A DNA stretch of 24,000 bases, from contig NZ_JALOAA010000019.1 in assembly GCF_023229025.1 (NCBI RefSeq), positions 10,736 through 34,735 of the forward strand, read 5' to 3'. The notes beneath the pieces are model-generated. The model searched no databases. It was not told the origin of the DNA and worked only from the letters and a program-made list of their open reading frames with translations. The translations under genes and the position numbers were made by a program. How positions within the stretch are numbered: the first letter of the stretch is position 1; every line of letters starts with the position of its first letter. Below are positions 1,138 to 19,986 of this stretch, one piece after another. Source of the DNA: Sulfurimonas sp. Lineage in GTDB: Bacteria > Campylobacterota > Campylobacteria > Campylobacterales > Sulfurimonadaceae.

Positions 1138-1149
1138 CTTTTCTCCTTC

Positions 1150-1443
1150 TTAATGATAATCTATTATTTCAACTTTGTCTGGACCACCTTTAGTCCATAT
1201 AAAACAGATTCGATATTGTTGGTTAATACGAATACTGTATTGATCATTCCTGTCACCAATTAGTTTCTCTAAGTGGTTTCCAGGAGGAACTTTTAGTTCA
1301 TCTAATATTACTACAGAGTCAAGTTGATCAAGTTTTCTTGCAGCTATCTTCCATAGTTTATTTGGCAACCGTTTCATTGCCTGCTTACTGGTAATACCGT
1401 TAAAAATATCTTCTGTTACTACATCTTTAAAAGAAACAATCAT
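1150..1443 (-). CDS. higB: HigB-family toxin (plasmid maintenance system killer, RelE/ParE superfamily)
   Basis: The 97-aa protein contains the blocks PPGNHLEKLIGDRNDQYSIRINQQYRICF and VEIIDYH, which are hallmarks of HigB killer proteins. It is paired with higA. Confidence 0.85.
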   Translation of the reverse strand: MIVSFKDVVTEDIFNGITSKQAMKRLPNKLWKIAARKLDQLDSVVILDELKVPPGNHLEKLIGDRNDQYSIRINQQYRICFIWTKGGPDKVEIIDYH

Positions 1444-1510: not shown

Positions 1511-2074
1511 ATGAACGTAGGATATGCAAGAGTTTCAACTTCAAGTCAAAGTCTTGAAAATCAGATAGAACAGCTTAAAGCTGCTGGGTGTGAAAAGATC
1601 TTCTCTGAAAAAAGATCAGGTAAAAATGCATCTGATCGTGAACAATTCAAAATAATGAAGAATTTTGTACGTGAAGGTGATGTACTATTTGTCACAAAAC
1701 TTGATCGTTTAGCTCGTTCTGTAATAGATTTACACGAGTTTGCAAAGTATTTGGAAAATAAAGATGTAAACCTTAAAGTTCTAAATCAAAATATAGATAC
1801 TACATCTCCAGCAGGAAGACTATTATTTACAATGCTAGGCGCTATTGCAGAGTTTGAACGAGATCTAATAAATGAACGCGTCAGAGAAGGTATTGCAGCC
1901 GCTAAACTCAAAGGAGTTAAATTTGGTAGAAAAGCGATACTTTCGTACAAAGAAAAAAAAGTCATATACAAACAACATGAGAAAGGAAAGTCAGTTATTT
2001 GGTTGTCAAACTTTTTCCATGTAGCTCGTAACACAATCTACAGAGCTATTAAAGATGTAGCTCAAAAAAAGTAG
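1511..2074 (+). CDS. small serine recombinase (resolvase/invertase family)
   Basis: The 187-aa protein has the N-terminal catalytic motif GYARVSTSSQ (Ser9), the conserved blocks VTKLDRLARS and AEFERDLINERVREG, and a C-terminal HTH (VARNTIYRAIK). Confidence 0.9.
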   Translation: MNVGYARVSTSSQSLENQIEQLKAAGCEKIFSEKRSGKNASDREQFKIMKNFVREGDVLFVTKLDRLARSVIDLHEFAKYLENKDVNLKVLNQNIDTTSPAGRLLFTMLGAIAEFERDLINERVREGIAAAKLKGVKFGRKAILSYKEKKVIYKQHEKGKSVIWLSNFFHVARNTIYRAIKDVAQKK

Positions 2075-3871: not shown

Positions 3872-5701
3872 TTATTGTATTACTAATCCTTCAATAACAG
3901 CTTTATTTTGCCTTGTTTCAATAATTGTTTTATTGTTTAGTGTATAAACAGATCTTATTGGATCTTTTGATTTTATTGTTCCTATATGAATTCCTTCTTG
4001 GGTATACCATTGTAAAATTTTATCACTTAATAATCCAAATCCAGATTTTGTAACGATTAACTTACCTTGTTGAAATATATCTATAAACCCAACCAGTTTT
4101 TCCTTATCTTTAATTATGTATAATCTTGTACTATTTGATATATATAGATATTGTCCCGATTCAATAATCTGGTTAGGAACTGTACCAATATCAAAAACTT
4201 TCAATGGGTTACCCAAGCTATCTAATTCAATTATTTTTCCTGAGTATGTGCCGATAAAAATATTTTTAGATTCGGATGAAAAACAAGCTTCGTATATCCA
4301 GTCTTGTGCAAACCCTAAATTTGAATTTATTTGGTAGGAAACATCTTTTACTGTAAATTCAAAATCAGGTTTTGTTTTTTTATAGAAGACTTCATCAGAT
4401 TGGTCTTCTTCAATAGCTAATGTTTCTGGATTGATTCCAGTTAGCGTTTCAAATGCTCCGTTAATTTTTTGCATCATCTCATTAGCATTACTATTTTTAT
4501 TGACATCTGGATGATACTTTTGTGCATTAATTCTATATTGCTTCTTTATTTCTTTAGGCGATACAGGTAATTCTAACCCCAAGCACTTTAGTGCATTGGA
4601 AATATTTGAATCGATTTTACCAGTATCCCTTTTGCTTACAAATCGTTCCCAGCCTTCATTTAAAGGAGTTCTTACTCCCCAATAAGATGAATCTGAAAAA
4701 GTAGAACACCAAATCTCATCTGCAATTGTGAATAAAATTTTATTAGAAGTCATATTAACATCAATTGCTCGTATTTGGCTTTTAAAACCACCCCAGTAAT
4801 TACCCACATTTTCTTTTAAGTGCTGCGATATCCTCATATCACTTTGAAGGTCTTTTTTTAAAGATAAATTAATGTTCTTATCATAGATGTATAAAACACC
4901 CTCATCATCCATTATTGCGATATTTGATGATTTTGGATTATTGTTTTGTCTATATATATTATGACTAATTGGTTTCTTTGCTACAATATTTCCTTCAAGG
5001 TCATATTTCATTATTGCAGACTGATATGGATTTTTAATTATATCACTTTTTCCATTCTTATCTATATAGATGATTCCATCAGCAATAAAGTTTACCAATT
5101 TGAATGAAGGGTCAGGCTTTTCATTTTTTTTCATTTTTATTATACTTGAAATTCTCCACTTCTGATTATTCTCTATTTCGAATAATTTAACTTCTTCTTC
5201 TTTGATTTCAATGGTATTATATGGATGTTTAATATTATTTTTTTCTAAATCATTTATGATGTTGTTATGTCTTCTTTTATCTGTATTATTGCAGTGAAAT
5301 TCAATTCTACTCAGCATTTCAGAAGACCATTTTCCAGCAGCTTTAAATTGATTTGCTTTACGCTTATTGATAATAATTTGTCTATATGCCTTTAATACTT
5401 CTTCCCCAATATTTAGTTTTAATTGCTCTTCTGATAGGAGAAGTGATTTTTTTATAACGTTAGTATATTTTTTTTGGTAACTTTCATTATAGACTTCTCG
5501 TATTTCTGGTATGTTGTATTCTTGGTGAAATTCATTTCGACCATCAATATCCCAAGATTTTGGAGATGGGGGCAAAGGTATATATTTAATATTATTTAAA
5601 TTGATCTCTTTTGGAGTACAACTTTTTCGTTTTTTCTCAGAGTGCTCTTCTTTTGGTAAATTGTTCTTATTTTTTTGAAATATTTTTTTAAAAAAATCCA
5701 T
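3872..5701 (-). CDS. J-domain (DnaJ-like) protein with the J domain embedded between beta-rich repeat regions
   Basis: The protein is 609 aa. Residues ~368-420 (nt ~4442..4600) read LKCLGLELPVSPKEIKKQYRINAQKYHPDVNKNSNANEMMQKINGAFETL, with the invariant HPD at aa 397-399 (nt 4505..4513). No G/F region, zinc-finger or DnaJ C-terminal domain is recognisable. Confidence 0.8.
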   Translation of the reverse strand: MDFFKKIFQKNKNNLPKEEHSEKKRKSCTPKEINLNNIKYIPLPPSPKSWDIDGRNEFHQEYNIPEIREVYNESYQKKYTNVIKKSLLLSEEQLKLNIGEEVLKAYRQIIINKRKANQFKAAGKWSSEMLSRIEFHCNNTDKRRHNNIINDLEKNNIKHPYNTIEIKEEEVKLFEIENNQKWRISSIIKMKKNEKPDPSFKLVNFIADGIIYIDKNGKSDIIKNPYQSAIMKYDLEGNIVAKKPISHNIYRQNNNPKSSNIAIMDDEGVLYIYDKNINLSLKKDLQSDMRISQHLKENVGNYWGGFKSQIRAIDVNMTSNKILFTIADEIWCSTFSDSSYWGVRTPLNEGWERFVSKRDTGKIDSNISNALKCLGLELPVSPKEIKKQYRINAQKYHPDVNKNSNANEMMQKINGAFETLTGINPETLAIEEDQSDEVFYKKTKPDFEFTVKDVSYQINSNLGFAQDWIYEACFSSESKNIFIGTYSGKIIELDSLGNPLKVFDIGTVPNQIIESGQYLYISNSTRLYIIKDKEKLVGFIDIFQQGKLIVTKSGFGLLSDKILQWYTQEGIHIGTIKSKDPIRSVYTLNNKTIIETRQNKAVIEGLVIQ

Positions 5702-6385: not shown

Positions 6386-7672
6386 TTAAAGCTGAGATTC
6401 TTCCTGTTTTTTCTTCGCTATTTTTTCATTATTCGTTGTTGTCGTAAATTCCGACATAAGTTTTTTATCAATGTATTGTAATGTCGTTTGAAATCCAATA
6501 TGCAGAGCTTTGAGTTCGATAATTGTATTGCCCTCTACAAATTTTGCGTATTTGTCTCCAACGAAAGGAATGTTTTTATCCACTAATGTATATTTGTGGG
6601 ACAAAGATGAATACAAATCATCAAATTTTTCTTTTGGAAGTGTAAGAAGTACCCCTTGAAGCTTTTCGCTTTGTGAGAAAATCAGTTTCGCTTCTTTGAG
6701 CCCATCAAAATGAAGCTGATCAACCTTTATAAAGATCATCTTTCCATTACTATATTTGTTAATCCCTGCATCTTCATATAAAGGGTATTTTTTTATGCTT
6801 TCCGAATAAGTAGCTTCGTCTATTTTCAGTCCAAATGGCGCTGGATTTACAGAAACTGTAGACATATTTTTTAAATTGTTTTGTGCAACAACACTCCCTT
6901 GAGCAATAGCTTTTTTGTACCAAAATTGTGCATTCTTTATATCACCTGTTTCTTCATAAAGTATCCCCAATGCAACTTCTGCATCAACAAAACCTTGCTC
7001 TGCTGCTCTTTTCCAATAATCCAATGACTTTCTATGGTCTTGTTTGATGCCAGCAGTGCCATTATAATACAGTAAGCCTATATTATACATTGAAATTACC
7101 GAGCCTTGTTCAGCAGCCTTTTGATACCATTTTAAAGCACTTTTCCTATCGACTGGTACACCTTTTCCTTTCTCATAAAATATTCCCATCGAATTTGACG
7201 CATTCGCATTACCATCTTTAGATCCACTTTTATAATATTTGATTGCTTTATTGTAATCTTGTTTAACTCCCTGACCGTATTCATATTGATATCCAACACT
7301 AAACGCTGATTCCCCATCGTTTTGTTTAGCTGCTCTTTTCCAATAATCCAATGACTTTCTATAATCTTGTGTTACTCCAACACCCTTGTAGTACATCAAT
7401 CCTAGATAATATAATGCATCGACATTGTTTTTTTCTGCTGCTTTTTCCCAATATTTTTTGGCATTAAGCACATCCTTCTTAACGCCCAATCCATTCACAT
7501 AAATGTGACCTAACTCTGTTTGTGCTTGGGCATCACCTTTGTCAGACAACTCATTGAATATTGACATAGCTTTTTTATACTCTTTATTCTTTAGCGCTTG
7601 CATAGCAGTGTTGTAATCATTTGCAAGCAAACCTATTGATAATAAGATACTTAAAATTAATACTTTGAACAT
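6386..7672 (-). CDS. secreted Sel1-like repeat (SLR) protein with a non-repeat C-terminal domain
   Basis: The protein is 428 aa. It has an N-terminal signal peptide MFKVLILSILLSIGLLA. It contains about 7 Sel1 repeats of the form A..LG..Y..G.GV.QD...A..WY.KAA.QG (for example RKSLDYWKRAAKQ and RKSLDYWKRAAEQ). The last ~150 aa are unrelated to the SLR repeats. Confidence 0.85.
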   Translation of the reverse strand: MFKVLILSILLSIGLLANDYNTAMQALKNKEYKKAMSIFNELSDKGDAQAQTELGHIYVNGLGVKKDVLNAKKYWEKAAEKNNVDALYYLGLMYYKGVGVTQDYRKSLDYWKRAAKQNDGESAFSVGYQYEYGQGVKQDYNKAIKYYKSGSKDGNANASNSMGIFYEKGKGVPVDRKSALKWYQKAAEQGSVISMYNIGLLYYNGTAGIKQDHRKSLDYWKRAAEQGFVDAEVALGILYEETGDIKNAQFWYKKAIAQGSVVAQNNLKNMSTVSVNPAPFGLKIDEATYSESIKKYPLYEDAGINKYSNGKMIFIKVDQLHFDGLKEAKLIFSQSEKLQGVLLTLPKEKFDDLYSSLSHKYTLVDKNIPFVGDKYAKFVEGNTIIELKALHIGFQTTLQYIDKKLMSEFTTTTNNEKIAKKKQEESQL

Positions 7673-7695: not shown

Positions 7696-7938
7696 CTATT
7701 TTTTTAAAATTAATTTGAATGCAGGATTGAGGGAGTGGCTAATCGAAATTAACTCCGTCTTAATAGCTTCCGCAGTAAGTTCAGCTTGCTCACGCATTTC
7801 TGCTTTTTTAGCATTAATCTCTTCAAGCTCTTCTTCTGTATAAGGGATAATGCCTCTTCTCTTTAGCTCACGCTCTTCTCTCTCAATCTTTTTTCTTTTT
7901 TCTTCAATCCACAATTTATCTTCTTCTGAAAGTGCCAT
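7696..7938 (-). CDS. hypothetical 80-aa charged coiled-coil protein
   Basis: The ORF comes from the track. It is a highly charged helical sequence (EEKRKKIEREERELKRRG...). It ends 23 nt upstream of the Sel1 gene on the same strand and is probably co-transcribed. Confidence 0.5.
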   Translation of the reverse strand: MALSEEDKLWIEEKRKKIEREERELKRRGIIPYTEEELEEINAKKAEMREQAELTAEAIKTELISISHSLNPAFKLILKK

Positions 7939-7982
7939 TTTGAACCCTTTGTTTTATTTTTATACAAAGCAATAGTCTGATT

Positions 7983-7998
7983 ATGTTCTATAGAACAT
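7983..7998. promoter_or_regulatory. 16-bp perfect palindrome, candidate operator in a divergent promoter region
   Basis: ATGTTCTATAGAACAT equals its own reverse complement. It lies between the divergent starts of the 80-aa/Sel1 operon (7938) and the XRE gene (8053). Confidence 0.5.
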
Positions 7999-8052
7999 TT
8001 CAAAACAATTCTAACAACTATAAACTTATACATACTTTACCTATAGGACATT

Positions 8053-8304
8053 ATGTATATTTTGAATGATTTAACTCCAGCAGAACTAGAAAATTTCTAT
8101 CGAGATATTGGGAAAAATGTCAAAAATGCAAGAAAAGAGAAAAAGATTTCTCAAATGCAGTTAGCCCTCGCTATAGGTCATAACTCTGTTGGACACATTG
8201 CAAAAGCCGAGCTTTACAAATATGACAAACATTTTAGTCTAGAGCAGCTTTTAAAAATTTCCCGTGTTTTAGATGTCTCTTTACATGATTTGATACCGAA
8301 GTAA
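8053..8304 (+). CDS. XRE-family helix-turn-helix transcriptional regulator
   Basis: The 83-aa protein shows the HTH_3 pattern IGKNVKNARKEKKISQMQLALAIGHNSVGHIAKAE...LEQLLKISRVLDVSLHDLI. Confidence 0.75.
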   Translation: MYILNDLTPAELENFYRDIGKNVKNARKEKKISQMQLALAIGHNSVGHIAKAELYKYDKHFSLEQLLKISRVLDVSLHDLIPK

Positions 8305-8331
8305 AAAACATTAAGACAACTCTTTTAACCT

Positions 8332-8625
8332 CTACTCGCTCTTATCCTCCACTCTACAAAGTCTAATCTCTAAGAGCAGATCATCTCTTTTAAAGTACTC
8401 CTTTTTATAGATCTCCCAGTTGCTGTTTTTACTCACAAGCATCTTTTGGTTATTGGCAATGCCAGTTGAGCAAAGGAGCGTCTTTTGATTTGCGAATGCC
8501 TCTACTTTTTCATCCATATCGAATGAGTTTATATGGTTCATGCCTAGTTTTAAAATATATATAAAGCTCATAAACAGTGCTGAAACCACAGCAATAACTA
8601 CTACGCTCTCTAAAATACTCTTCAT
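8332..8625 (-). CDS. small membrane-anchored two-cysteine protein, paralog 1 (97 aa, 1 TM)
   Basis: An N-terminal TM helix (ILESVVVIAVVSALFMSFIYIL) is followed by a conserved module AFANQKTLLC(52)...LVSKNSNWEIY..YFKRDDLLLEIRLC(90). This module is shared with ORFs 8815..9087, 9084..9476 and 10576..10935. Confidence 0.65.
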   Translation of the reverse strand: MKSILESVVVIAVVSALFMSFIYILKLGMNHINSFDMDEKVEAFANQKTLLCSTGIANNQKMLVSKNSNWEIYKKEYFKRDDLLLEIRLCRVEDKSE

Positions 8626-8641
8626 CTCTTTGTCTCCTTTG

Positions 8642-8812
8642 TTAAAACAGCTTCATAAAAAGCTCTCTGATCTTGCGGTATCGCTCATACTTTACTATTA
8701 CGACTACTACACCTATAAATATACCGATCCCTAGATACAGAAGCAGCGGCGGCTCATTTGAAGGCGGAAAAAACTCTCTTATAAGTATCAGTGTATCTTG
8801 ATTTAAAACCAT
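8642..8812 (-). CDS. small single-TM peptide (56 aa from the internal ATG; the track ORF extends to 8833)
   Basis: The sequence is MVLNQDTLILIREFFPPSNEPPLLLYLGIGIFIGVVVVIVKYERYRKIRELFMKLF. The ATG at 8812 lies 2 nt after the stop of the upstream gene (8815), which fits operon packing. No homology is recognised. Confidence 0.4.
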   Translation of the reverse strand: MVLNQDTLILIREFFPPSNEPPLLLYLGIGIFIGVVVVIVKYERYRKIRELFMKLF

Positions 8813-8814
8813 TG

Positions 8815-9087
8815 CTACTCCCTCTCCCTGCACTCTGATATAGAGACAAACTTATCCTCTTTGACAAACTCCTCTCCTTGAATCTTCCACCCTCCTCTTT
8901 TACTTACAAGAAACCTCTCAAACCCTCCTCTGCAAGCAAACTCTTGATTCTCTAAAAAAGCTTTTTTCTTCTCGTCATCATTTAAGCTTGTAATTTCTTT
9001 ATAACCCTCAAGAAGTGCTCCAAACATGAGAGCGAAGATACCGATAATTACAACTGCTACAACTATATTTTCTGCTATCTTTTTCAC
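8815..9087 (-). CDS. small membrane-anchored two-cysteine protein, paralog 2 (90 aa, 1 TM)
   Basis: The N-terminal TM helix is IVVAVVIIGIFALMFGALL. The module KAFLENQEFAC(52)...LVSKRGGWKI..FVKEDKFVSISEC(86) is collinear with paralog 1, including DEK at aa 38-40 and Cys52. The gene overlaps the upstream gene by 4 nt. Confidence 0.65.
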   Translation of the reverse strand: MKKIAENIVVAVVIIGIFALMFGALLEGYKEITSLNDDEKKKAFLENQEFACRGGFERFLVSKRGGWKIQGEEFVKEDKFVSISECRERE

Positions 9088-9476
9088 TCTTTAGGTTCCT
9101 TTAGTTCTTTTGTCTTCTCTGTTGGTTTGGTCTCTTTTAGGAGGATACAACCGCCGATGTAGAGTATATTTTGCTCATGGATAAAGTAGTCACTCTGAAG
9201 CGTAAATCCTTTTGCTTGAGAGATGATTAGTTTTTTCTCATCATCCTCTTTACATAAAAGCTCTTTGTTGTTGTAAAAACCCTCTATGAGGCTCTCTCGT
9301 GTATTTTTAAAATGCACAGAGCCGATGATAACTATAAGAATTGCAAAAAAGCTAAAGTTGAGTATGGAGTCTCTTTTTTTATCATCAAATGAGTAAGGAA
9401 TCGTTGCAAACACTGCAATAACAAGAGAGAGTGCGGCAAGTCCGATTATCTCTGTTAAAGTCAGATGTAAATCCAT
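9084..9476 (-). CDS. small membrane two-cysteine protein, paralog 3 (130 aa, 2 TM, divergent)
   Basis: It has two TM helices (IIGLAALSLVIAVFATI and FSFFAILIVIIGSV). The module follows: EGFYNNKELLC(75)...LIISQAKGF..YFIHEQNILYIGGC(110). A Lys/Glu-rich tail ends the protein. Confidence 0.6.
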   Translation of the reverse strand: MDLHLTLTEIIGLAALSLVIAVFATIPYSFDDKKRDSILNFSFFAILIVIIGSVHFKNTRESLIEGFYNNKELLCKEDDEKKLIISQAKGFTLQSDYFIHEQNILYIGGCILLKETKPTEKTKELKEPKE

Positions 9477-9493
9477 AGTAGTTCTCTTTTTTT

Positions 9494-9577
9494 TTAGAAT
9501 ATTTTGTATGGAAGCGTTGCTATAAACATCAAAGCGCTAAATACAAGAAGTGCAGTTTGGAGATGCTCAGGCATCAT
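9494..9577 (-). CDS. possible 27-aa hydrophobic mini-protein (speculative)
   Basis: I translated this by hand: ATGATGCCTGAG... gives MMPEHLQTALLVFSALMFIATLPYKIF. Its start overlaps the stop of the 142-aa gene (AATGATGCCTGA). It fills most of an otherwise empty 90-nt gap in the operon. No further support is available. Confidence 0.2.
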   Translation of the reverse strand: MMPEHLQTALLVFSALMFIATLPYKIF

Positions 9578-9995
9578 TTTTTAACTCACTTTTATCTTGA
9601 GCGAACTCTGACGAGAGAAACTTCTCTCTTTGGATGATGCAGTACTCCTTGTACCTGCAGATATATCTGCTTGATATTTCTCTCTTGTGCACTCCGCTTA
9701 CCCTATAAAGTCCAAACAGCCAAAAGAGCGAGCTTTTCTTTATAAGCTCTTTTGGGTGCTTGCAGAGAAGCTTTTCATAATCACTCCCCAAAGCGCTGTG
9801 TTCGTTGTAGAGAGTTTGTCTTCCCTCTATGGTATAGATGCCATTCTCATCCAAGGAGAGTGTTGCATCCAAAAATACGCTATGCATCTCTTCATGCCCT
9901 ACATGGTAAAAGCGCTCACCTGCCGGATTTACAAGTATCTCTCTGTTGTGCTCATCTATTAAGATATTTACATTGCTGTAGAGTATTTTTGACAT
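9567..9995 (-). CDS. hypothetical 142-aa protein
   Basis: The ORF comes from the track, within the same-strand operon. It contains HEEMH (aa 34-38), but I recognise no family. Confidence 0.55.
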   Translation of the reverse strand: MSKILYSNVNILIDEHNREILVNPAGERFYHVGHEEMHSVFLDATLSLDENGIYTIEGRQTLYNEHSALGSDYEKLLCKHPKELIKKSSLFWLFGLYRVSGVHKREISSRYICRYKEYCIIQREKFLSSEFAQDKSELKNDA

Positions 9996-10070
9996 TGGCT
10001 CTCCTTGTTTCTTTAGTAGAGTATAATTGTAAGATAGCAGAGTGCGGGCGTTGTTTCGCTCTTTTTATTT

Positions 10071-10568
10071 TTAAAGCTCAAACCTGCTAAGGGTGATGAG
10101 TTTTAGATTTTTATCGCACAGGTTCATCTTCATAGCTATGCGTTTTTTATTGGCGTCTTGCATGATCCAAGTGAGTTTTTTACGCTCAAAGAGTATCTTT
10201 TTGCCGATATCCACAAAGTCGCTGTCTGAGGAGATAAATATAAACTCGTCATACTCTTTAAGGATTCTATAGACGCTCTTTATCTTTGCATCACTATCGC
10301 TCTTATGTGCTACGAGCACTTCAAAGCCGTTCTTTTGCATAGAGATAAGCTTGGAGTGTTTTATGGGGTTGGTAGTTATGATAAATGAACGTTCCGGTGC
10401 GAACTTGAGTGATTGTTTTACTTGTGGAAGATGACTGTAAGGGATGTTCTCCAGATCCCAAAGCAGCACCGCCTTTTCTCTATAGTTGCCGCTTCCCCAT
10501 GTTACCTCTTTTATAACATCTTCATCAACGGCTTGAAAATAGCTCTCAAAACAAAAAAATGAAAACAT
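10071..10568 (-). CDS. NYN-domain (LabA/PIN-like) putative ribonuclease
   Basis: The 165-aa protein matches the NYN signature blocks in order. They are AVLLWDLENIP (D-x-E-N), GFEVLVAHKSDSDAKIK (acidic DA motif) and FIFISSDSDFVDIGKKI (S-x-D-S-D-F). Confidence 0.65.
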   Translation of the reverse strand: MFSFFCFESYFQAVDEDVIKEVTWGSGNYREKAVLLWDLENIPYSHLPQVKQSLKFAPERSFIITTNPIKHSKLISMQKNGFEVLVAHKSDSDAKIKSVYRILKEYDEFIFISSDSDFVDIGKKILFERKKLTWIMQDANKKRIAMKMNLCDKNLKLITLSRFEL

Positions 10569-10575
10569 CTACCCA

Positions 10576-10935
10576 TTACCTCTTTTGCTCGCAGTTTATT
10601 ATTTCTAAAAGCAGATCCTCTTTTTTAAAATAGCTATCCTCATAAACACTCCATCCCTCTTTTATAGAGACAAGATAGTGCTCCTTCTTTTTAAACGCTC
10701 CGGTTTTGCAAATAAAAGTGTTTTCGTCATAAAACGCTCCTCTTTTCTCTTTAATGGTGTTATTGTCATAGAGCGCAAAGAGGTAGGAGAGTATGGTTAC
10801 AAATACAAAGGAGCCCATAAAGATAAAAAGTACAGTCCGCAGTGAAGGTTTCTCGCTCTTTTTTAAAGCCGAGAAGTGTAGCAGCACCAATGCAAAGCCA
10901 AGGATGATTGAGAGTTTAAAGATTTCAAGAGCCAC
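10576..10935 (-). CDS. small membrane two-cysteine protein, paralog 4 (119 aa, 2 TM), first gene of the operon
   Basis: The start codon is GTG. It has two TM helices. The module GAFYDENTFIC(76)...YLVSIKEGWSVY..YFKKEDLLLEIINC(115) nearly duplicates the C-terminal block of paralog 1 (EDLLLEIINC versus DDLLLEIRLC). Confidence 0.65.
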   Translation of the reverse strand: MALEIFKLSIILGFALVLLHFSALKKSEKPSLRTVLFIFMGSFVFVTILSYLFALYDNNTIKEKRGAFYDENTFICKTGAFKKKEHYLVSIKEGWSVYEDSYFKKEDLLLEIINCEQKR

Positions 10936-11109
10936 GCTATCGCCTTCTTCTGTTTTTATAAAAAGTATAAGAAATGCGGGTGAAAGCGTGGTTTCGTTTT
11001 AGTGATACTGCATTATCATATATAAAATGTGGTACAAATAGCCAACTTATTCACACCATTTATGGTATGATTATAGAAAGCAATCACACTATTTACAGGA
11101 AAGAAGATT

Positions 11110-12240
11110 ATGAAACGCTGGATTTGGCAACAAAGTGAGTATCCAAACTTTACCTATGACCTAAAAAGATTAGAGAGTTTGATACAAAAGGTCTCTCTTG
11201 AACAGGGATACTTAATCGCTCTTGCACAAACCATAGATAAAGACAATATCATTCAAAGACGCTTTGAAGCCTTGATGAATGAAGCTATAAACACTTCTGC
11301 CATAGAGGGAGAGATTCTAAACCGCGATAGCGTAAAAGCCTCAATTCAAAAAAAGCTTGGATTCAAAGAGATAAACTATAAAAAAATAGACGAGGCGACA
11401 GATTACCTTATAGAGATACTTATAGATGCAAACAGTAACTATGACAAAGAGTTGAAGCTCGAGAGATTATTTGGTTGGCACAATGCTCTCTTTCCAAAAG
11501 GATACAGTGGATTACGCAAGGTAAATACAGCATCATTTAGAGGCGAAGAGACCATGGAAGTAGTAGGAATAGAGCGCGGCAGAGAGGTGGTTTTTTATGA
11601 AGCACCGCCTAGAGCTAACCTAGAGCATGAGATGCAGAAATTTTTAGATTGGTTCAATGCTGCCGAACCTAGTTTGATCAAAGCCTGCATAGCACATCTT
11701 TGGTTTGTTATAATCCACCCATTTGATGATGGAAACGGAAGACTAGCAAGGGCTATAACGGACTTGGTACTCTCAAAAATAGAAAACTCTAAGATCTCAA
11801 GACTCTACTCTATGTCAAGTGCCATAAACACAGACAGAAAAGGCTATTACAGAGCGCTTGAGCACACTACAGGATATATAAACAAAGAGAGTAATCCTCT
11901 TGATATAACCCATTGGTGCGAGTGGTTTTTATCTACCCTGCATAATGCTCTTATTGACACTAAAAAAAAGCTTGACTATATAGTACAAAAAACAAAGTTT
12001 TGGGATAAACATAAAAACGATGAGCTTAACGCAAGAGAGATAAAAGTACTCAATTTCGTACTCGACATGGGAGCAGAAAATTTCCAAGGAAACTTAAGCA
12101 AAAAGAAGTATATGAGCATTGCAGACACTGCATCGACAAATGCTTCAAGAGACATAGCACAGCTCTTAGAGCTTGGCTGTATAAGACAAAAAGAAGGGAC
12201 TAGCGGAAGAAATACTGCTTATGAGATAATCTTGGATTAG
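11110..12240 (+). CDS. Fic-family protein (AMPylase-type) with an N-terminal inhibitory motif and a C-terminal winged-helix-like region
   Basis: The 376-aa protein has the canonical Fic motif HPFDDGNGRLAR (aa 203-214, nt 11716..11751). The autoinhibitory (S/T)xxxE(G/N) motif TSAIEG lies at aa 62-67 (nt 11293..11310). The N-terminus MKRWIWQQSEYPNFTYD is typical of the DUF4172-type Fic N-terminal extension. Confidence 0.9.
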   Translation: MKRWIWQQSEYPNFTYDLKRLESLIQKVSLEQGYLIALAQTIDKDNIIQRRFEALMNEAINTSAIEGEILNRDSVKASIQKKLGFKEINYKKIDEATDYLIEILIDANSNYDKELKLERLFGWHNALFPKGYSGLRKVNTASFRGEETMEVVGIERGREVVFYEAPPRANLEHEMQKFLDWFNAAEPSLIKACIAHLWFVIIHPFDDGNGRLARAITDLVLSKIENSKISRLYSMSSAINTDRKGYYRALEHTTGYINKESNPLDITHWCEWFLSTLHNALIDTKKKLDYIVQKTKFWDKHKNDELNAREIKVLNFVLDMGAENFQGNLSKKKYMSIADTASTNASRDIAQLLELGCIRQKEGTSGRNTAYEIILD

Positions 12241-12473
12241 CCCTTAACACTCTCTATCTTTTGGCAGATCTCACGCATAACATACTCTAGTTTTTTTGCT
12301 TTATCGTAGTAGTCTAAAAACGGTTCTACCCAGTTTGGGATTACTAAAGGCTTGCCTTCTCTCATTACTCCCCAATTGTTGATTGTTGAATAGGGAACTC
12401 TGCATAATTCGGAGAAATCTTGTTTTGAGATTTCAAGCTCTTTCAACCTTAGAATAAATTGCTCTTTTGTCAT
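12237..12473 (-). CDS. small HTH DNA-binding protein (XRE/Cro-like)
   Basis: The 78-aa protein has an HTH segment ISKQDFSELCRVPYSTINNWG. It is convergent with the Fic gene, and the two 3' ends overlap by 4 nt. Confidence 0.6.
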   Translation of the reverse strand: MTKEQFILRLKELEISKQDFSELCRVPYSTINNWGVMREGKPLVIPNWVEPFLDYYDKAKKLEYVMREICQKIESVKG

Positions 12474-12539
12474 AAAACACCTTTTGTACTATATTTGGAT
12501 AATTTTACCATATAAAATACTAATATAGCAATTTACTTC

Positions 12540-12568
12540 TTGACATAATATGCATATTAGTATATAAT
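12540..12568 (+). promoter_or_regulatory. consensus sigma70-type promoter with a 14-bp palindromic operator in the spacer
   Basis: TTGACA (12540..12545), a 17-bp spacer and TATAAT (12563..12568) are all perfect. The spacer contains the perfect palindrome TAATATGCATATTA (12546..12559). Confidence 0.55.
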
Positions 12569-12608
12569 CTGTTTAATAAATACTATTATAGGATAAAAGG
12601 AGCAACAG

Positions 12609-12722
12609 ATGAGAAAAGCAAAACACTTAGCAAAAGAGTACAGATATACAATCTTTGTACTCACAATAGAGCTTTTGGTGAGTATTACTCAAGCACTGCC
12701 GCTTTTAAGCAGCGCTGCATAA
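12609..12722 (+). CDS. 37-aa mini-ORF: basic N-terminus plus hydrophobic helix (leader peptide or small toxin-like peptide)
   Basis: I translated this by hand: MRKAKHLAKEYRYTIFVLTIELLVSITQALPLLSSAA. It is preceded by AAAAGGAG with a 6-nt spacer and lies ~40 nt downstream of the consensus promoter. It is too short for the supplied ORF track. Confidence 0.35.
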   Translation: MRKAKHLAKEYRYTIFVLTIELLVSITQALPLLSSAA

Positions 12723-12738
12723 TGAAAGGAGTTTTACT

Positions 12739-12999
12739 ATGGCACAAAAATCATACGATAAAGCTCTTTTTAGACTTATCTCCATACTCTCTATGCTCAC
12801 TAAAGACGAAAGACCTACTATCTCATCTTTGGCAGAGGAGTTTAATGTTTCTAAAAGAACTATTCAGACAGATATTTATCAAAGACTCTGTGGCTGGGAT
12901 ATTACTAAAGATAAGCTTGGGAGGCTTGTTTTTAGGGATGGGGTTAATATTTTTGGGGTGACTCGGAAGTTAGGGAGAAAGGGGAAGGAGGTGGTGTGA
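12739..12999 (+). CDS. YafY/WYL-regulator-type N-terminal HTH domain protein, apparently truncated
   Basis: The 86-aa protein begins YDKALFRLISILSMLTKDERPTISSLAEEFNVSKRTIQTDI, matching the HTH_11 head of YafY-like regulators. No WYL domain follows. The last ~25 codons are an atypical G-rich stretch that ends 1 nt from a convergent gene relic. An RBS AAAGGAG lies upstream. Confidence 0.5.
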   Translation: MAQKSYDKALFRLISILSMLTKDERPTISSLAEEFNVSKRTIQTDIYQRLCGWDITKDKLGRLVFRDGVNIFGVTRKLGRKGKEVV

Positions 13000-13000
13000 G

Positions 13001-13140
13001 TCACTTGATTTTACTTTTAATACGCTTTTCTAAAATCTCTTTCCGTTTTTCCCAATACTCATATAAAGAGCTAAATAATCATAAAATTGCTTAGAATGAT
13101 TTGGATAAATAAAATGAACCAGTTCATGAAAAACAACATA
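13001..13140 (-). pseudogene. relic of a DUF45/YgjP-type (M48-like, COG1451) zinc metallopeptidase gene: C-terminal fragment only, frameshifted
   Basis: Manual translation gives YVVFHELVHFIYPNHSKQFYDYLALYM, containing the HExxH...NHS..F signature of the YgjP family. An in-frame TAA lies immediately upstream. The expected C-terminus EYWEKRKEILEKRIKSKIK* continues in a different frame. The fragment is therefore N-terminally truncated and frameshifted. Confidence 0.55.
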
Positions 13141-13208
13141 TTATATGCAAATTTTGGGCTTTTTTATAAGTTGATCTTGGTTCAGTTTAATAATAAATTA
13201 AACCTGAT

Positions 13209-14078
13209 TTAAAACTCATCTACTATGCTCTTTCTTATCTGCTCAAACTCTTCTGGAGTAATCTCCATATCTTCCATAAGCTCTCGGAGTTCTTCTTTGG
13301 CTTGTATATCCTCTTCGCTATCTTTGCTTATGGGGACAAACCCTTTTCCAATTATTCCCAATGATTTTTTATTGTGTTCAGGAACAAGACTTGGGTTATG
13401 TTTTAGACATAAGATATAGATAATGCCTTTTAGCAACTCAAAGGTCTCTTTGGTAGGTTTTATGTCAAAACACGACATGTATTTATACAATCTGTCGTAG
13501 TCTATCTTGTTCATAAAAACACCGGAATCCATATTTTGTTTGAACTCTTGAGCAGGAATTGTGTTCTTAAAAGTGTGATGTTTATTGCGAAGTTTTTTCA
13601 TAGCTTCTTTAACAATTGGTCTATATTTTTTTCTGAAATTGCTTGCGGTGGCATAGTTTGCTTTTTGATTATTTGTACTAAGATTGAACCATATATATGA
13701 ACGCATGAGAATATCTTTGTTGTTGTATTTGTCTGATTCTATTATTCCCATATTGACTCTTTTGTATTGATTTTTTGTAGCGGTCATGATGCCTTTTTCA
13801 AAAGCAGTCTTCCCTTCTTGTTCTGGATCTTTTTGGTTTAGATTGCAAACTTTCTTTTGAACTTTTTGATATGCTTTTTTTATGAAGTTGTCTTTTTTTT
13901 CAGGTGTGTTATCGTGAATAAGATTGATTATTTTTTTAAAAGCATAGTACTCACTTGGATTAAATTCTAAATCTAAAGCCTGCTCACTATGGTTAAGTAT
14001 ATCATCCCTTATTTCATCAAGAAACATTGCAAGATGCTCCTTGTTTAATATGAAACTTTCTCTTTTTTCTTTTATCAT
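13209..14078 (-). CDS. hypothetical 289-aa protein (possible replication/regulatory protein of a small mobile module)
   Basis: This is a long open frame from the track with an acidic C-terminal tail. I recognise no family. The role is suggested only by context: it lies downstream of an HTH_17-like gene and next to an iteron-like repeat field. Confidence 0.6.
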   Translation of the reverse strand: MIKEKRESFILNKEHLAMFLDEIRDDILNHSEQALDLEFNPSEYYAFKKIINLIHDNTPEKKDNFIKKAYQKVQKKVCNLNQKDPEQEGKTAFEKGIMTATKNQYKRVNMGIIESDKYNNKDILMRSYIWFNLSTNNQKANYATASNFRKKYRPIVKEAMKKLRNKHHTFKNTIPAQEFKQNMDSGVFMNKIDYDRLYKYMSCFDIKPTKETFELLKGIIYILCLKHNPSLVPEHNKKSLGIIGKGFVPISKDSEEDIQAKEELRELMEDMEITPEEFEQIRKSIVDEF

Positions 14079-14885: not shown

Positions 14886-17800
14886 TTATTTTGTATGTGT
14901 AAGCTCTTCGGCAATCATCTCAGCCTGCTTCAAAACAGTTTCCGTAGCCAACATTTGCATATCTGGTGGATAACCAAACTGTCTCAGAGTTCGTTTTACT
15001 ATTACTTTTAGTTTTGAGCGAACGCTCTCTTTAATGGTCCAGTCTATACTTGCATTTTCTCTTACTCTTTGTGTAAGTACGACTGCCAACTCTCGTAAGA
15101 TTTCTTTTTCCATAAGCTCTTTTGCACTGTCGTTATTAGCAACTGCGGTATAAAAAGCATACTCAAAATCAGATAAACCCATCTCTTTGGGCTCTTCATC
15201 CATCTGATGAATATCTTTTGCCAGTTTCATAAGCTCATCAATTACTTCAACAGCAGTGATGATTTTATTGTGATATTTTTTAATAGAGCTTTCCAACATC
15301 TCCATAAGAGATTTACTCTGAACTAGATTAGTTTTCATGCGAGTTTTTATCTCATCATTGAGTAGTTTTTTCAGCACTTCAAGAGCGATATTTTTATGTT
15401 TCATCCCTTGAACTTCCATTAGGAACTCTTCAGAAAGTATAGAAATATCAGGCTTTTTAATCCCAGAGGCATCAAATATATCTATAACTTGCTCTGTTAC
15501 AAGTGCTTTATCTATAACTTGTCTTATGGTGGTTTCCATCTCTTCATCTGTTTTGCCAGGACCACCGCCATCAAACTTAACAAGTCGTGCTTTTACAGCT
15601 TGAAAGAAAGAGATTTCATCTTTAACATCCATAGCTTCTTCATGGGGAACTGCTATTGCGAAAGCTTGTGATAATGCAGTCACTTCACCAATGTATCTTT
15701 TCTTACCATCTTCAAGCCCTAATATATGTTCTTCAGCTTCAAGTATAAGCGATAACTTTTGTCTCGTGTCTGCTTGAAAATAATCCTCATAAGCAAATCC
15801 ATGATACATTTGAGAAACTACTTCTAACTTTTCAAGCATAAGGGCTACGGCTTGCTCTTGAGCCAAAGCGGGATCACCTTTTCCGCCACTATCACTATAA
15901 AAAGAAAGAGCCTTTTTCAAGTCACTAGCAATCCCTAGATAATCAACAACAAGTCCGGCTGGTTTGTCTTTATAAACTCTATTTACCCTTGCTATGGCTT
16001 GCATAAGGTTATGACCTTTCATTGGTTTATCTATGTAGAGTGTGTGCATAGATGGTGCATCAAATCCAGTAAGCCACATATCTCTAACAATGACAAGTTT
16101 TAGCTCATCACTAGTATCTTTCATACGATTAGCTAAATCTCTTCTTTGTTGCTTGGTTGTATGATGTTTAGCCATATCTGGACCATCACTTGAACTCGCT
16201 GTCATGATAACTTTAATAACACCTTTGTCTAAGTCATCATTATGCCACTCAGGCTTAAGTGCAATTATCTCTTTGTAAAGCTCAGTTGCAATTCTTCTAC
16301 TCATAGAAACAATCATACCTTTACCATCAAATACTTCTTGTCTCTTTTCAAAGTGAGCGACTATATCATTTGCCACTTCTTTTATTCTATTTTTACTACC
16401 TATAAGAGCTTCAAGTTGAGTCCATTTTGCTTTTGCTTTTTGGGTATCGTTTAAGTCATCATTTTTTATCTCGCTATCTAGTTCTTTAACAAGCTCTTTA
16501 CCCTCATCACTAAGTTGTATCTTAGCAAGTCGGCTTTCATAGTAAATCTTAACAGTAGCACCATCTTCAACAGCTTGTGAAATATCATAAATATCTACAT
16601 AATCACCAAATACAGCAGGTGTATTGACATCACTACTCTCTATTGGTGTACCAGTAAATCCAAGATAGGTAGCATTTGGTAAGGCATCCCTTAGATACTT
16701 TGCAAAACCATAAACGATTCTTTTACCAATAACATTTCCGTCTTTATCTTTTTCATCAACAGTTTTTGGTTTAAATCCATACTGAGTACGGTGTGCTTCA
16801 TCGGCTAGAACTATGATGTTTCGTCTATCTGAAAGTTCATCATAGATATTTCCCTCTTCGGGTTGAAACTTTTGGATAGTGGCAAATATAACCCCACCCG
16901 AAGCTACTTTGAGAAGTTTCTTAAGATGATCTCTATCTTCTGCTTGAATAGGTTCTTGTCGCAGAAGTGAAGCAGAACTTGCAAAGGTATCAAATAGTTG
17001 GTCATCTAAATCATTTCTATCTGTGATAATAAGGATTGTAGGATTATTTAAACTCAATACTATCTTACCCGTATAGAAAACCATAGAAAGTGATTTACCA
17101 CTTCCTTGTGTATGCCAAACGACACCACCTTTTTTATCTCCATCTTCTGCACTTGCTTTTGTAGTTCTCTCAACAGCTTTATTTACTGCATAGTACTGAT
17201 GATAAGCAGCTAGTTTTTTAACAGTCTCTATAGTAGTTATACCAGTCTTACTATCTTCTTTTGTGCTTTTCTCATAAACGATAAAGTTACGGATTAAATC
17301 TAAAAGAGTGATTGGGTTTAACATACCAGTTATCATAGTTTCAACTTGAGATATTAACTTAGAAGCTTCACTTTTACCATCACTACTTTTCCAAGACATA
17401 AATCTTGTTAGACCAGCTGATATAGTTCCTGCTTTTGCTTCTAAGCCATCACTTATAATACAAAAAGCATTGTAAGTAAAAAGAGATGGGATAACACTTT
17501 TATAAGTCTGTATTTGCTTGTATGCAGAACCAACAGTTGCATTTTCATCTATTGGATTTTTAAGCTCAATTATTACAAGAGGTAAGCCATTTACAAAGAG
17601 GATTAAATCTGGTCGTTTATTGATACCATTTTCTATGATAGTAAATTGGTTTGATACTACAAAGTCATTTTTAGATATATCATCAAAATCTACAAGTTTA
17701 ACTATTTCACCACGAGTGACACCATCCTTTTGCACTTCAACAGTTATACCCTCTGTAAGCATTTTATGAAAAGTTTCATTATCTGTTAAAAGTTCTGTTG

Positions 17801-18035
17801 TTCTTAGTCTCTGGCATTGTTTTACAGCATATTCTATTTGGTTGTATTCTAAAGTAGCGTTTATAGCAGTAAGTGAGTTTGTGAGTTTTTCTTTGAGTAT
17901 CACATCTTCAAAAGATTCTCTGAGAGGAGTTTCACTATCAGGTGCTATATTTGGAGCATAGATATATTCAAAGCCTTGTTTTTCTAAAAGCTTTATAGCA
18001 AAAAGTTCTATTTCATTTTCTGTTATTTTAGTCAT
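14886..18035 (-). CDS. hsdR: type I restriction enzyme R subunit
   Basis: The protein is 1049 aa. It has a PD-(D/E)xK nuclease motif RPDLILFVNGLPLVIIELKNP. The SF2 helicase motifs are HTQGSGKS, DEAH (LADEAHRTQ, nt 16791..16802), FTGTP and QAIARVNR. The start ATG overlaps the stop of the upstream gene (ATGA). Confidence 0.95.
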   Translation of the reverse strand: MTKITENEIELFAIKLLEKQGFEYIYAPNIAPDSETPLRESFEDVILKEKLTNSLTAINATLEYNQIEYAVKQCQRLRTTELLTDNETFHKMLTEGITVEVQKDGVTRGEIVKLVDFDDISKNDFVVSNQFTIIENGINKRPDLILFVNGLPLVIIELKNPIDENATVGSAYKQIQTYKSVIPSLFTYNAFCIISDGLEAKAGTISAGLTRFMSWKSSDGKSEASKLISQVETMITGMLNPITLLDLIRNFIVYEKSTKEDSKTGITTIETVKKLAAYHQYYAVNKAVERTTKASAEDGDKKGGVVWHTQGSGKSLSMVFYTGKIVLSLNNPTILIITDRNDLDDQLFDTFASSASLLRQEPIQAEDRDHLKKLLKVASGGVIFATIQKFQPEEGNIYDELSDRRNIIVLADEAHRTQYGFKPKTVDEKDKDGNVIGKRIVYGFAKYLRDALPNATYLGFTGTPIESSDVNTPAVFGDYVDIYDISQAVEDGATVKIYYESRLAKIQLSDEGKELVKELDSEIKNDDLNDTQKAKAKWTQLEALIGSKNRIKEVANDIVAHFEKRQEVFDGKGMIVSMSRRIATELYKEIIALKPEWHNDDLDKGVIKVIMTASSSDGPDMAKHHTTKQQRRDLANRMKDTSDELKLVIVRDMWLTGFDAPSMHTLYIDKPMKGHNLMQAIARVNRVYKDKPAGLVVDYLGIASDLKKALSFYSDSGGKGDPALAQEQAVALMLEKLEVVSQMYHGFAYEDYFQADTRQKLSLILEAEEHILGLEDGKKRYIGEVTALSQAFAIAVPHEEAMDVKDEISFFQAVKARLVKFDGGGPGKTDEEMETTIRQVIDKALVTEQVIDIFDASGIKKPDISILSEEFLMEVQGMKHKNIALEVLKKLLNDEIKTRMKTNLVQSKSLMEMLESSIKKYHNKIITAVEVIDELMKLAKDIHQMDEEPKEMGLSDFEYAFYTAVANNDSAKELMEKEILRELAVVLTQRVRENASIDWTIKESVRSKLKVIVKRTLRQFGYPPDMQMLATETVLKQAEMIAEELTHTK

Positions 18036-18661
18036 TTTGAATCACTTAAAACTTGAACTAGTTCGATACAACAAAAATTATTTGTTAAAAAATAAAACAT
18101 TAACATCGAAATAACTACAATGACAAATAGGAAACTAAGAGGTAGTTTGTCTTTCCACAAAGTTAAATTTAATTGTTTTTCGACCCAATTTATATGTTTT
18201 CTCCACTGCCAAAAAAATTTATAATGTGCATACCAATCACTAAAAAGTATCTGTTTACTAATAGATTTTGAGTAAAACTGATCTTCAATGGTTTTCAATT
18301 TCTCTTTTGCTTCATCAAACTGATCATCATCTAACTTTGCTTTAACTTCATAATATAGTTCTTTCAAGGAATTAAAATGTTTTGTAATTTCACTCCCAGC
18401 TTCAGAATAATCTTTTTTAGTATCATTGTATGATGATATATAAATACCAACAATACCAAAAATAACTAATGTTGCAGAAATATTTTTTAATGTAAAAAAC
18501 TCGATATATAGCGATAAAATTCCAATTGCTATCGATGCAAAACTGATAATTCCTGGTAGTTTCTCAATCATATCGAATGTTGCAAAATGCTTTTTCGCTC
18601 CAAAACCGACATTATATGCACTTTCTGCAATCTGTTGCAATAAATTTTCTTTTGTCATCAA
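18032..18661 (-). CDS. SLATT-like membrane effector (2 central TM helices plus a C-terminal TM)
   Basis: The track ORF is 209 aa and starts at TTG 18661. An ATG at 18658 gives 208 aa. The N-terminal block AESAYNVGFGAKKHFATFDMIEKLPG is followed by two closely spaced TM helices (IISFASIAIGILSLYIEFF and ATLVIFGIVGIYISSY), as I recall for SLATT-family proteins. It sits immediately downstream of, and overlaps, a SMODS-type NTase gene. Confidence 0.65.
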   Translation of the reverse strand: MMTKENLLQQIAESAYNVGFGAKKHFATFDMIEKLPGIISFASIAIGILSLYIEFFTLKNISATLVIFGIVGIYISSYNDTKKDYSEAGSEITKHFNSLKELYYEVKAKLDDDQFDEAKEKLKTIEDQFYSKSISKQILFSDWYAHYKFFWQWRKHINWVEKQLNLTLWKDKLPLSFLFVIVVISMLMFYFLTNNFCCIELVQVLSDSK

Positions 18662-19956: not shown

Positions 19957-19986
19957 ACAATCATTCCTATGTTTTATAATTTTTTA

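Follow-up and report, generated by a model that had tools for sequence, protein, structure and literature searches.

Several described systems share part of their design with the locus considered here. Type IV pilins and type II secretion pseudopilins combine an N-terminal hydrophobic helix, running into a long alpha-helix, with a small beta-sheet head and a cysteine pair, and are encoded as operonic paralogs. The exclusion proteins SieB, TraS and T4 Imm and Sp are small, lie in the inner membrane or face the periplasm, and are encoded by mobile elements among defence genes; to our knowledge, the known superinfection- and entry-exclusion proteins are single genes rather than four conserved paralogs with peptide partners. 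In the type V toxin-antitoxin (TA) system GhoS/GhoT an RNase-fold gene stands beside a gene for a small membrane protein, and islands that integrate at tmRNA or tRNA genes with P4-type integrases carry defence hotspots. The locus that we compare with these systems is an operon at positions 8332-10935 of a 24,000-nucleotide stretch of DNA (hereafter the window) from Sulfurimonas sp., contig NZ_JALOAA010000019.1. A sequence-only reading of this DNA had picked out four paralogous membrane-anchored proteins with two cysteines each (here two-Cys proteins), a NYN-domain protein and tiny membrane peptides, and could name no system to which they correspond. We found here that the operon is part of the conserved backbone of integrative Sulfurimonas genomic islands, and that the slot held by its NYN-like gene is occupied by a different gene in sister islands.

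The eight minus-strand genes form a single, tightly packed operon (Table 1). From the 119-aa to the 97-aa gene the junctions measure +7, +75, -11, +17, -4, +2 and +16 nt, and most of the genes are preceded by purine-rich ribosome-binding sites; all eight open reading frames (ORFs) and their spacing are as first described. No convincing minus-strand sigma-70 consensus was found in the intergenic region upstream of the first gene. Every one of the ORFs is conserved in other loci (those fetched for comparison carry L-numbers, L001 being S. denitrificans DSM 1251), including the 27-aa frame that had been put forward as a possible transmembrane peptide. The ratio of non-synonymous to synonymous substitution (dN/dS) lies mostly at 0.07-0.25: it is 0.07-0.11 for the 165-aa NYN-like protein, 0.08-0.12 for the 142-aa protein, 0.09-0.23 for the 119-type protein, 0.20-0.43 for the 56-aa protein (p56) and about 0.2 in two of three pairs for the 27-aa peptide (p27), the exceptions being 0.63 (p27 against L022) and 0.43 (p56 against L001). 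Taken together, the orthologs and the low ratios indicate that all eight are real genes under purifying selection. Sulfurimonas assemblies in ENA/NCBI carry an identical 97-aa protein in an identical gene order. With more than 20 loci mapped, the consensus order in Sulfurimonas runs from a divergent HTH_11 gene through a 78-aa gene, [Fic, inverted], the 119-type gene, a NYN or Phd/YefM-like gene, the 142-aa gene, [the 27-aa gene with the 130-type and/or 90-type genes], the 56-aa gene, the 97-type gene and [59-aa] [81-aa] genes to a convergent XRE gene and an 80-aa gene.

BLASTP relates the 97-aa protein to the 119-aa protein at E=3e-14 and to the 90-aa protein at E=2e-11, the 90-aa to the 119-aa protein at E=3e-8, and the 130-aa protein to the other three at E=5e-5 to 5e-4. 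On these scores the four are true paralogs of one new family, as had been proposed from a shared module of about 50 aa. A profile built from them retrieved 93 proteins, of which all the named ones come from Sulfurimonas, and an exhaustive HMMER search over 1.84 billion representatives (clusters at 50% identity) returned 315 representative clusters at E<=1e-3, of which 35 reach E<=1e-10; a second, word-indexed search with a diverse alignment recovered mainly the same Sulfurimonas set. Each type (97/94, 90, 119 and 130/122 aa) constitutes a separate conserved orthologous group, with 119-type orthologs, for example, in L001, L018, L019, L024, L026, L029, L032 and L033. The family signature reads AF-x-N-x-x-L-x-C ... 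YLVSK-x-x-GW-x-[IV]-Y ... YFKKDDLL-x-I-x-x-C, in which both cysteines are conserved at 99-100%, two phenylalanines at 94-97% and the tryptophan at 78%. The named sources of distant members are confined to Sulfurimonas, 'Campylobacterota bacterium' and 'Epsilonproteobacteria bacterium', and the fetched loci have 31-36% G+C throughout.

Libraries of described families returned little. Pfam gave no consistent family for 47 diverse members (nine families were matched by one member each, at E>=1.8e-4) and no match for the 56-aa and 142-aa proteins, and the two-Cys, 56-aa and 142-aa proteins are without a match in NCBIfam and PADLOC. The five operon proteins scanned against PHROGs v4 (97, 56, 119, 142 and 165 aa) have none either, nor do the two-Cys proteins match SieB (PF14163) or TraS (PF10624). 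In PADLOC-DB 2.0 the operon proteins yield only a 17-bit PycTM match, to the 119-aa protein, which is consistent with its transmembrane composition. Nucleotide and translated searches (blastn and tblastn) of plasmids and phages with the region, the 119-aa protein, the family consensus domain and the NYN protein found nothing apart from the Fic flank in an Arcobacter plasmid; a consensus-domain query matched no reference genome, and the literature on Suden locus tags and Sulfurimonas islands held nothing relevant. Having no match in the curated families, defence catalogues and solved or predicted structure libraries searched, the two-Cys family, the 142-aa family and the operon architecture are new at the family and gene-cluster level, in keeping with the statement that no known system could be named.

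The topology of the two-Cys proteins can be read from their charge distribution. Among 248 members one transmembrane helix is predicted in 120 and two in 122, and in the latter the loop between the helices carries 3.6 Lys/Arg against 0.29 in the N-terminal flank. This bias places the loop in the cytoplasm and indicates that the C-terminal domain of about 50 aa of these inner-membrane proteins is periplasmic. Exactly two cysteines follow the last helix in 226 of 242 members, spaced mostly 33-39 residues apart, so positioned that a single disulfide within the periplasmic domain is plausible. Both the location of the module outside the cytoplasm and a disulfide there had been anticipated, and the cysteine positions in the four window proteins are exactly those originally listed. 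An AlphaFold2 model of the 97-type protein from a 20-sequence alignment (predicted local distance difference test, pLDDT, 86.2; predicted template modelling score 0.63) has a helix over residues 2-45 and, after it, six short strands, of which the first contains C52 and the last C90, so that the family is predicted to present a small beta-domain after a long helix. Foldseek searches of the PDB and BFVD with this model found nothing significant. The nearest likeness is to SH3/Sm-type barrels such as Hfq and the designed SH3 barrel 7ur7, in which a helix is likewise followed by five or six short strands (target-normalised template modelling score 0.47-0.54); unlike them, the two-Cys domain is membrane-anchored, periplasmic and, it is proposed, Cys-bridged, and at E-values of 2-10 and probabilities of 0.2 or less no homology is implied. 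A lipoprotein identity was rejected, the lipobox [LVI][ASTVI][GAS]C being present near the N-terminus in 0 of 248 members.

This architecture bears a surface likeness to that of minor pilins, pseudopilins or another known secretion accessory set, with its N-terminal hydrophobic helix, small beta-domain, cysteine pair and paralogs in one operon, and a match to such a family was the outcome that the sequence-only reading had set against itself. It was not found. The class III signal G-[FM]-[ST]-L-[ILV]-E occurs in 0 of 248 members (8 have a loose G-x4-E), there being neither a peptidase motif nor Glu5; about half of the family has two transmembrane helices; and the cysteine pair spans the whole domain. 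Genes for a prepilin peptidase, ATPase, secretin or platform protein are absent from the window and from the Pfam-annotated fetched loci, and neither the fold searches nor Pfam returned a pilin. A pilin or pseudopilin identity is therefore effectively refuted, and we consider it hardly credible.

Selection on the domain bears upon what it may do. Constraint on the periplasmic domain exceeds that on the transmembrane anchor in three types, 97, 90 and 119 (omega about 0.08-0.21 against 0.15-0.46), whereas the 130-type shows the reverse (0.25-0.50 against 0.18-0.27). Arms-race diversification of the periplasmic domain was thus rejected for three of the four paralogs, and the constraint argues instead for a conserved partner or fold. 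This is also a difficulty for the idea that the locus is a periplasmic immunity array, similar to recombinase-associated acquired interbacterial defence gene arrays, in which every paralog would have its own periplasm-acting toxin or bacteriocin to neutralise. Such an array would account for tandem small periplasm-facing paralogs beside an integrase on mobile islands, for a copy number that varies from 1 to 4 between islands, and for the loop between the first cysteine and the LVSK motif, whose length differs among the paralogs. However, each paralog is a conserved orthologous group with its exposed domain under strong purifying selection, cognate toxin or secretion-system genes occur in none of the loci examined, and the fixed order and fixed partners (p56, the 142-aa protein and p27) point to one machine and not to a collection. 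We regard an immunity array as very unlikely.

Of these partners, the 142-aa family is confined to Sulfurimonas and Sulfuricurvum; its window member, confidently modelled as all-beta, gave no match in a fold search and no solved structure by sequence. The p27 peptide is conserved at exactly 27 aa (MMPEHLQTALL...LPYKIF), with orthologs in L018, L022, L024, L025, L026, L028-L031 and L033, and is found only where a 130-type or 90-type gene follows. Orthologs of p56 occur in 15 Sulfurimonas-type loci as the constant partner of the 97-type gene, and the protein ends in a basic tail, ...KYERYRKIRELFMKLF. In five distant clusters the two-Cys members are adjoined by small transmembrane proteins with a basic stretch and a ...F-x-D-x-x-F end reminiscent of it; the tail pattern matches 5 of 3,209 ORFs, having been defined post hoc, after those sequences were seen. 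A jackhmmer search from p56 recovered close orthologs only and did not link the five distant proteins to it.

The status of the NYN gene proved to be more complex. The 165-aa protein scores just above the Pfam threshold for NYN (PF01936; 25.5 bits against a gathering cutoff of 24.2, E=2.1e-5), with residues 33-136 aligned to model positions 2-123 of 145 after an N-terminal extension of 35 aa, and the precomputed NYN matches on its orthologs are flagged 'faint' or 'weak'. The motifs D-x-E-N, SDSD and SDSDF reported for it are present and are kept in all five orthologs; D38, E40, N41, D91, D93, D115 and D117 are invariant there and are candidates for a PIN-like active site, but the orthologs are themselves as close as 79-92% identity. 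A sequence search of solved structures found no relative. The protein is a putative member of the NYN/LabA-like group, and may act as the nuclease effector that had been suggested. Lack of conservation of the module or of its NYN linkage in other genomes had been named as grounds for refutation; the module is conserved, and the linkage is conserved in part. NYN genes are present in five non-redundant Sulfurimonas clusters (the window, L001, L019, L026 and L032), but in at least five others (L018, L024, L028/L031, L029 and L033) a Phd/YefM-like gene fills the same slot, overlapping the stop of the 119-type gene by 1-4 nt, and all distant clusters of the family (L011, L014, L016, L017, L034 and L035) are without NYN. 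An obligate NYN partner was accordingly rejected: NYN and Phd/YefM-like genes can replace each other in the cytoplasmic slot, and the NYN link is optional rather than fixed.

Recurrent Phd/YefM-like proteins, found in L011, L016, L017, L018, L024 and L028-L033, bring to mind type II TA systems, and it might be proposed that the locus is a TA or abortive-infection module in which the small membrane proteins (two-Cys, p56 and p27) are membrane-damaging toxins or effectors held in check by the Phd/YefM-like or NYN gene. Control could then be exerted by protein binding, or by mRNA cutting as in GhoS/GhoT, where the RNase-fold gene would correspond to the NYN gene beside the two-Cys genes. The overlap with the 119-type gene, the presence in L016 (protein P0291) of a Phd/YefM-like domain fused ahead of the 142-aa domain, the holin- or type I toxin-like shape of p56 (one transmembrane helix and a basic tail), the adjacent XRE regulators and the abundance of TA and abortive-infection genes on these islands all speak for it. 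Against this, most of the Phd matches fall below the cutoff (with PF02604 the L016 and L017 proteins score 20-24 bits against 29.8), although the 119-aa Phd/YefM-like protein of L018 has an unmarked precomputed PF02604 match. Small membrane toxins are moreover usually without a folded, conserved extracytoplasmic domain, which in three of the four paralogs is here the part under the tightest constraint; four paralogs in fixed order, within an operon of eight genes and no recognised toxin family, do not resemble a TA pair; and solo copies occur without an antitoxin-like neighbour. Overall, a TA or abortive-infection module seems to us rather unlikely.

The setting of the operon is that of an integrative island. 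Over a block of about 7696-14078 the encoded proteins share 74-97% identity with those of DSM 1251, and the flanks differ. At two loci, L018 and L025, a P4-type tyrosine integrase (Arm-DNA-bind_3 plus Phage_integrase) adjoins the cluster and is followed by a tmRNA gene (tag ANNTNYRPAYAVA), an arrangement that identifies an island end at ssrA. L001 and L026 have a tRNA cluster (Pro-His-Arg-Arg-Leu) no more than about 3.5-4 kb away from the conserved block. Scans of the window for Rfam families, tRNAs and repeats found no RNA gene and no attachment (att)-like repeat. The metagenome-assembled genome Sulfurimonas sp. RIFOXYB12_FULL_35_9 holds the cluster twice, on different contigs (L024 and L025), consistent with a mobile or duplicated element. 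The separate acquisition that had been suggested is borne out by membership of an integrative island, which implies horizontal transfer, and the higher G+C content noted at the same time is real, if modest (0.382 against 0.307-0.319 in the left flank, in a low-G+C Sulfurimonas, 33%). The likeness to P4-integrase islands extends from the integrase beside ssrA or a tRNA cluster to the small HTH regulators and variable anti-phage cargo; unlike in those, the backbone here is a membrane-protein operon, and replication, packaging and transfer genes were not recognised.

It is conceivable that such an operon serves the life cycle of the island itself, being expressed after a switch of a putative HTH_11/78-aa repressor in order to aid movement or exploit a helper, for instance by timing lysis (in holin/antiholin fashion), remodelling the envelope for transfer or blocking host competence. 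The position of the operon after a 78-aa gene that matches phrog_8898 and phrog_25249 and is divergent from HTH_11, its proximity to the integrase, and the conservation of the block across species between differing flanks would all fit, but neither endolysin genes nor those for replication, packaging or transfer are recognised near the module, the viral contigs and phage genomes searched contain no member of the family, and solo copies lie outside islands. We judge this explanation quite unlikely. Among the distant relatives, clusters L011, L014, L016, L017 and L035 have 1-3 two-Cys members (2-3 each in L011, L016, L017 and L035) and often hold Phd-like, XRE, HTH_11 or 78-aa genes, and L034 has a solo copy after an integrase. 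Further solo members stand beside nif-related genes in L008 (NifB-like radical SAM, homocitrate synthase and NifU/Sel1) and in a housekeeping region near rpoN in L036. These core-gene neighbourhoods, together with the strong constraint on YLVSKxxGW...YFKKDDLL...C, could mean that the two-Cys proteins are housekeeping envelope proteins of the Campylobacterota, such as periplasmic or peptidoglycan-associated scaffolding, secondarily amplified on islands. Most of the contexts examined are, however, islands or plasmid-like regions, and presence is patchy, with variable copy number and two copies in one genome; we consider a housekeeping origin of this kind very unlikely.

The neighbours of the clusters are overwhelmingly defence genes, which in the window are type I restriction-modification, SMODS/SLATT and SieB genes and at other loci include SIR2/HerA, RmuC, GmrSD, MmeI, nSTAND3, AbiE, Hachiman and KwaA. 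The reading that we prefer, with a probability of roughly 0.35, is that the operon encodes a hetero-oligomeric envelope complex by which the island contends with phages or other mobile elements. The four paralogs, which persist as separate orthologous groups in a fixed order, would assemble with the 27- and 56-aa transmembrane peptides; the complex might exclude incoming phages or rival mobile DNA at a periplasmic or inner-membrane step, or it might sense envelope perturbation, with the 142-aa protein and the NYN or Phd/YefM module as its cytoplasmic regulator or effector. Support comes from the fixed gene order of the four orthologous groups, the constraint on the periplasmic domain in three of them, the multi-copy clusters in distant relatives, the island context and the defence neighbours. 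Several observations weigh against it. No component is homologous to exclusion or defence proteins (the two-Cys proteins have no sequence relationship to the exclusion proteins, of which a SieB-family gene shares the window), and location in a defence island is guilt by association. The two-Cys family was not found in the viral contigs, phage genomes and plasmids searched, the NYN assignment is marginal with no solved structure matched by sequence, and the strong purifying selection on the periplasmic domain is unlike that of many exclusion and immunity proteins, which co-evolve with invaders. The solo members among housekeeping genes (L008 and L036) suggest a general envelope role of the domain. 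More specific, and in our view doubtful, is the proposal of a new anti-phage or anti-mobile-DNA system, namely a Campylobacterota-specific mobile-element envelope machine comprising a two-Cys hetero-oligomer of disulfide-locked beta-domains, p56-like proteins, p27 and the 142-aa protein with an interchangeable NYN RNase or Phd/YefM-like module.

The locus would add to the island backbones of Sulfurimonas and its relatives a new multi-gene membrane module and a new protein family that comprises hundreds of sequence clusters. These bacteria are abundant sulfur-oxidisers in vent, sediment and aquifer habitats, and their mobile elements and phage defences have hardly been studied. Were a role in defence or exclusion to be true, paralogous periplasmic domains would make up a mechanism acting at the envelope, whereas the systems so far catalogued are mostly cytoplasmic; if it were not, the conserved backbone could still serve to locate these islands and the defence genes that they carry. 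S. denitrificans DSM 1251 is a cultured strain in which the module could be tested; its simpler version, which includes Suden_0231, has 119-type, NYN, 142-aa, 56-aa, 94-aa, 59-aa and 81-aa genes.

Table 1. Features of the operon, of the remainder of the window and of comparison loci (aa, amino acids; TM, transmembrane helix; R-M, restriction-modification). Positions refer to the window unless a locus is named.
Feature	Position	Strand	Remarks
119-type two-Cys member (2 TM and predicted periplasmic domain, C76/C115)	10576..10935	-	first gene of the operon in the window
165-aa NYN-like protein (putative PIN-like nuclease fold)	10071..10568	-	PF01936 match
142-aa soluble protein, new family modelled as all-beta	9567..9995	-	model pLDDT 84.8
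27-aa single-TM peptide	9494..9577	-	start overlaps stop of 142-aa gene by 11 nt
130-type two-Cys member (2 TM, C75/C110, K/E/P-rich tail)	9084..9476	-	optional cassette gene
90-type two-Cys member (1 TM, C52/C86)	8815..9087	-	optional cassette gene; 4-nt overlap with 130-type gene
56-aa single-TM protein, basic C-terminal tail	8642..8812	-	63 aa if upstream GTG start is used
97-type two-Cys member (1 TM, C52/C90)	8332..8625	-	last gene of the operon; ortholog Suden_0231
Intergenic, operon to divergent Fic gene, 174 nt	10936..11109	.	presumed promoter region
XRE/HTH_3 regulator	8053..8304	+	Pfam HTH_3 E=1.8e-7
80-aa coiled-coil protein, conserved island gene	7696..7938	-	adjoins XRE gene
DUF4172-Fic protein	11110..12240	+	Pfam; opposite orientation, between 78-aa gene and operon
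78-aa protein	12237..12473	-	matches phage families phrog_8898 and phrog_25249 (both of unknown function)
86-aa HTH_11 regulator	12739..12999	+	Pfam HTH_11 E=1.7e-7; divergent from 78-aa gene
Type I R-M operon	14886-23250	-	hsdM 21679-23250; hsdS 20514-21692; hsdR 14886-18035
SieB-family gene	19987-20517	-	nested between hsdS and hsdR
SMODS+AGS_C nucleotidyltransferase	18658-19956	-	nested between hsdS and hsdR
SLATT_6 two-TM effector	18032-18661	-	nested between hsdS and hsdR
HigB-like toxin and HTH_3 antitoxin pair	838-1443	-	
Serine resolvase	1511-2074	+	adjoins HigB-like/HTH_3 pair
609-aa protein with internal DnaJ domain	3872-5701	-	between cluster and resolvase
428-aa Sel1-repeat protein	6386-7672	-	between cluster and resolvase
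Small TM proteins with p56-like tail	L011 4957-5307; L014 10586-10759; L016 8937-9311; L017 10657-10818; L035 10017-10358		
Phd/YefM-like domains	L016 10328-10999; L018 7909-8268; L017 9669-9941; L011 5946-6329		L016 protein is P0291
P4-type tyrosine integrase	L018 10658-12418; L025 2184-3944		
Solo two-Cys members	L008 9337-9681; L036 9001-9369		
80-aa protein homologs	L001 11186-11545; L019 11703-12026		

The genes on either side of the operon belong to the same block. The XRE/HTH_3 gene is convergent with the end of the operon (tail to tail, 27 nt) and hence lies outside it, and is divergent from the 80-aa gene; XRE homologs stand at the same end of the cluster in L001, L019, L022, L026, L032, L011 and L014. 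Homologs of the 80-aa protein occur in L001, L019, L021, L022, L026 and L032, and nothing in the family libraries passes a cutoff with it. Its alignment to the DSM 1251 homolog is limited to the first 65 residues (80% identity); homologs measure 80, 107 and 119 aa, the longer ones bearing a weak TraS (entry-exclusion) label among their precomputed annotations. At the other end, the Fic gene overlaps the 78-aa gene tail to tail by 4 nt and is found at this place in the window and L001 only, being absent in L018, L019, L024, L029 and L033, while L032 has a Fic homolog about 5 kb upstream. Since other islands have no Fic here, it looks like inserted cargo that parts the operon from its usual first gene, and not like a constant partner; in islands without Fic the 78-aa gene heads the operon. 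The position of HTH_11 is conserved in L001, L017, L018, L019, L024, L026, L029, L032 and L033. The HTH_11 protein matches PHROGs, as does the 78-aa protein and as the operon proteins scanned do not, and the two may possibly constitute a repressor/anti-repressor pair.

Elsewhere in the window, the type I restriction-modification operon has three further genes nested within it, among which SMODS and SLATT_6 make a pair resembling a cyclic oligonucleotide-based antiphage signalling system (CBASS). The left end of the window, where a TA pair stands beside a serine resolvase, suggests a second mobile or plasmid-derived segment. Between the resolvase and the cluster, the Sel1-repeat protein has a sub-threshold NCBIfam 'MerG' match (102 against 350 bits) that probably reflects repeat similarity only, and the 61-nt direct repeat D1 at 6995/7322, which lies within the same gene, probably corresponds to its Sel1 repeats.

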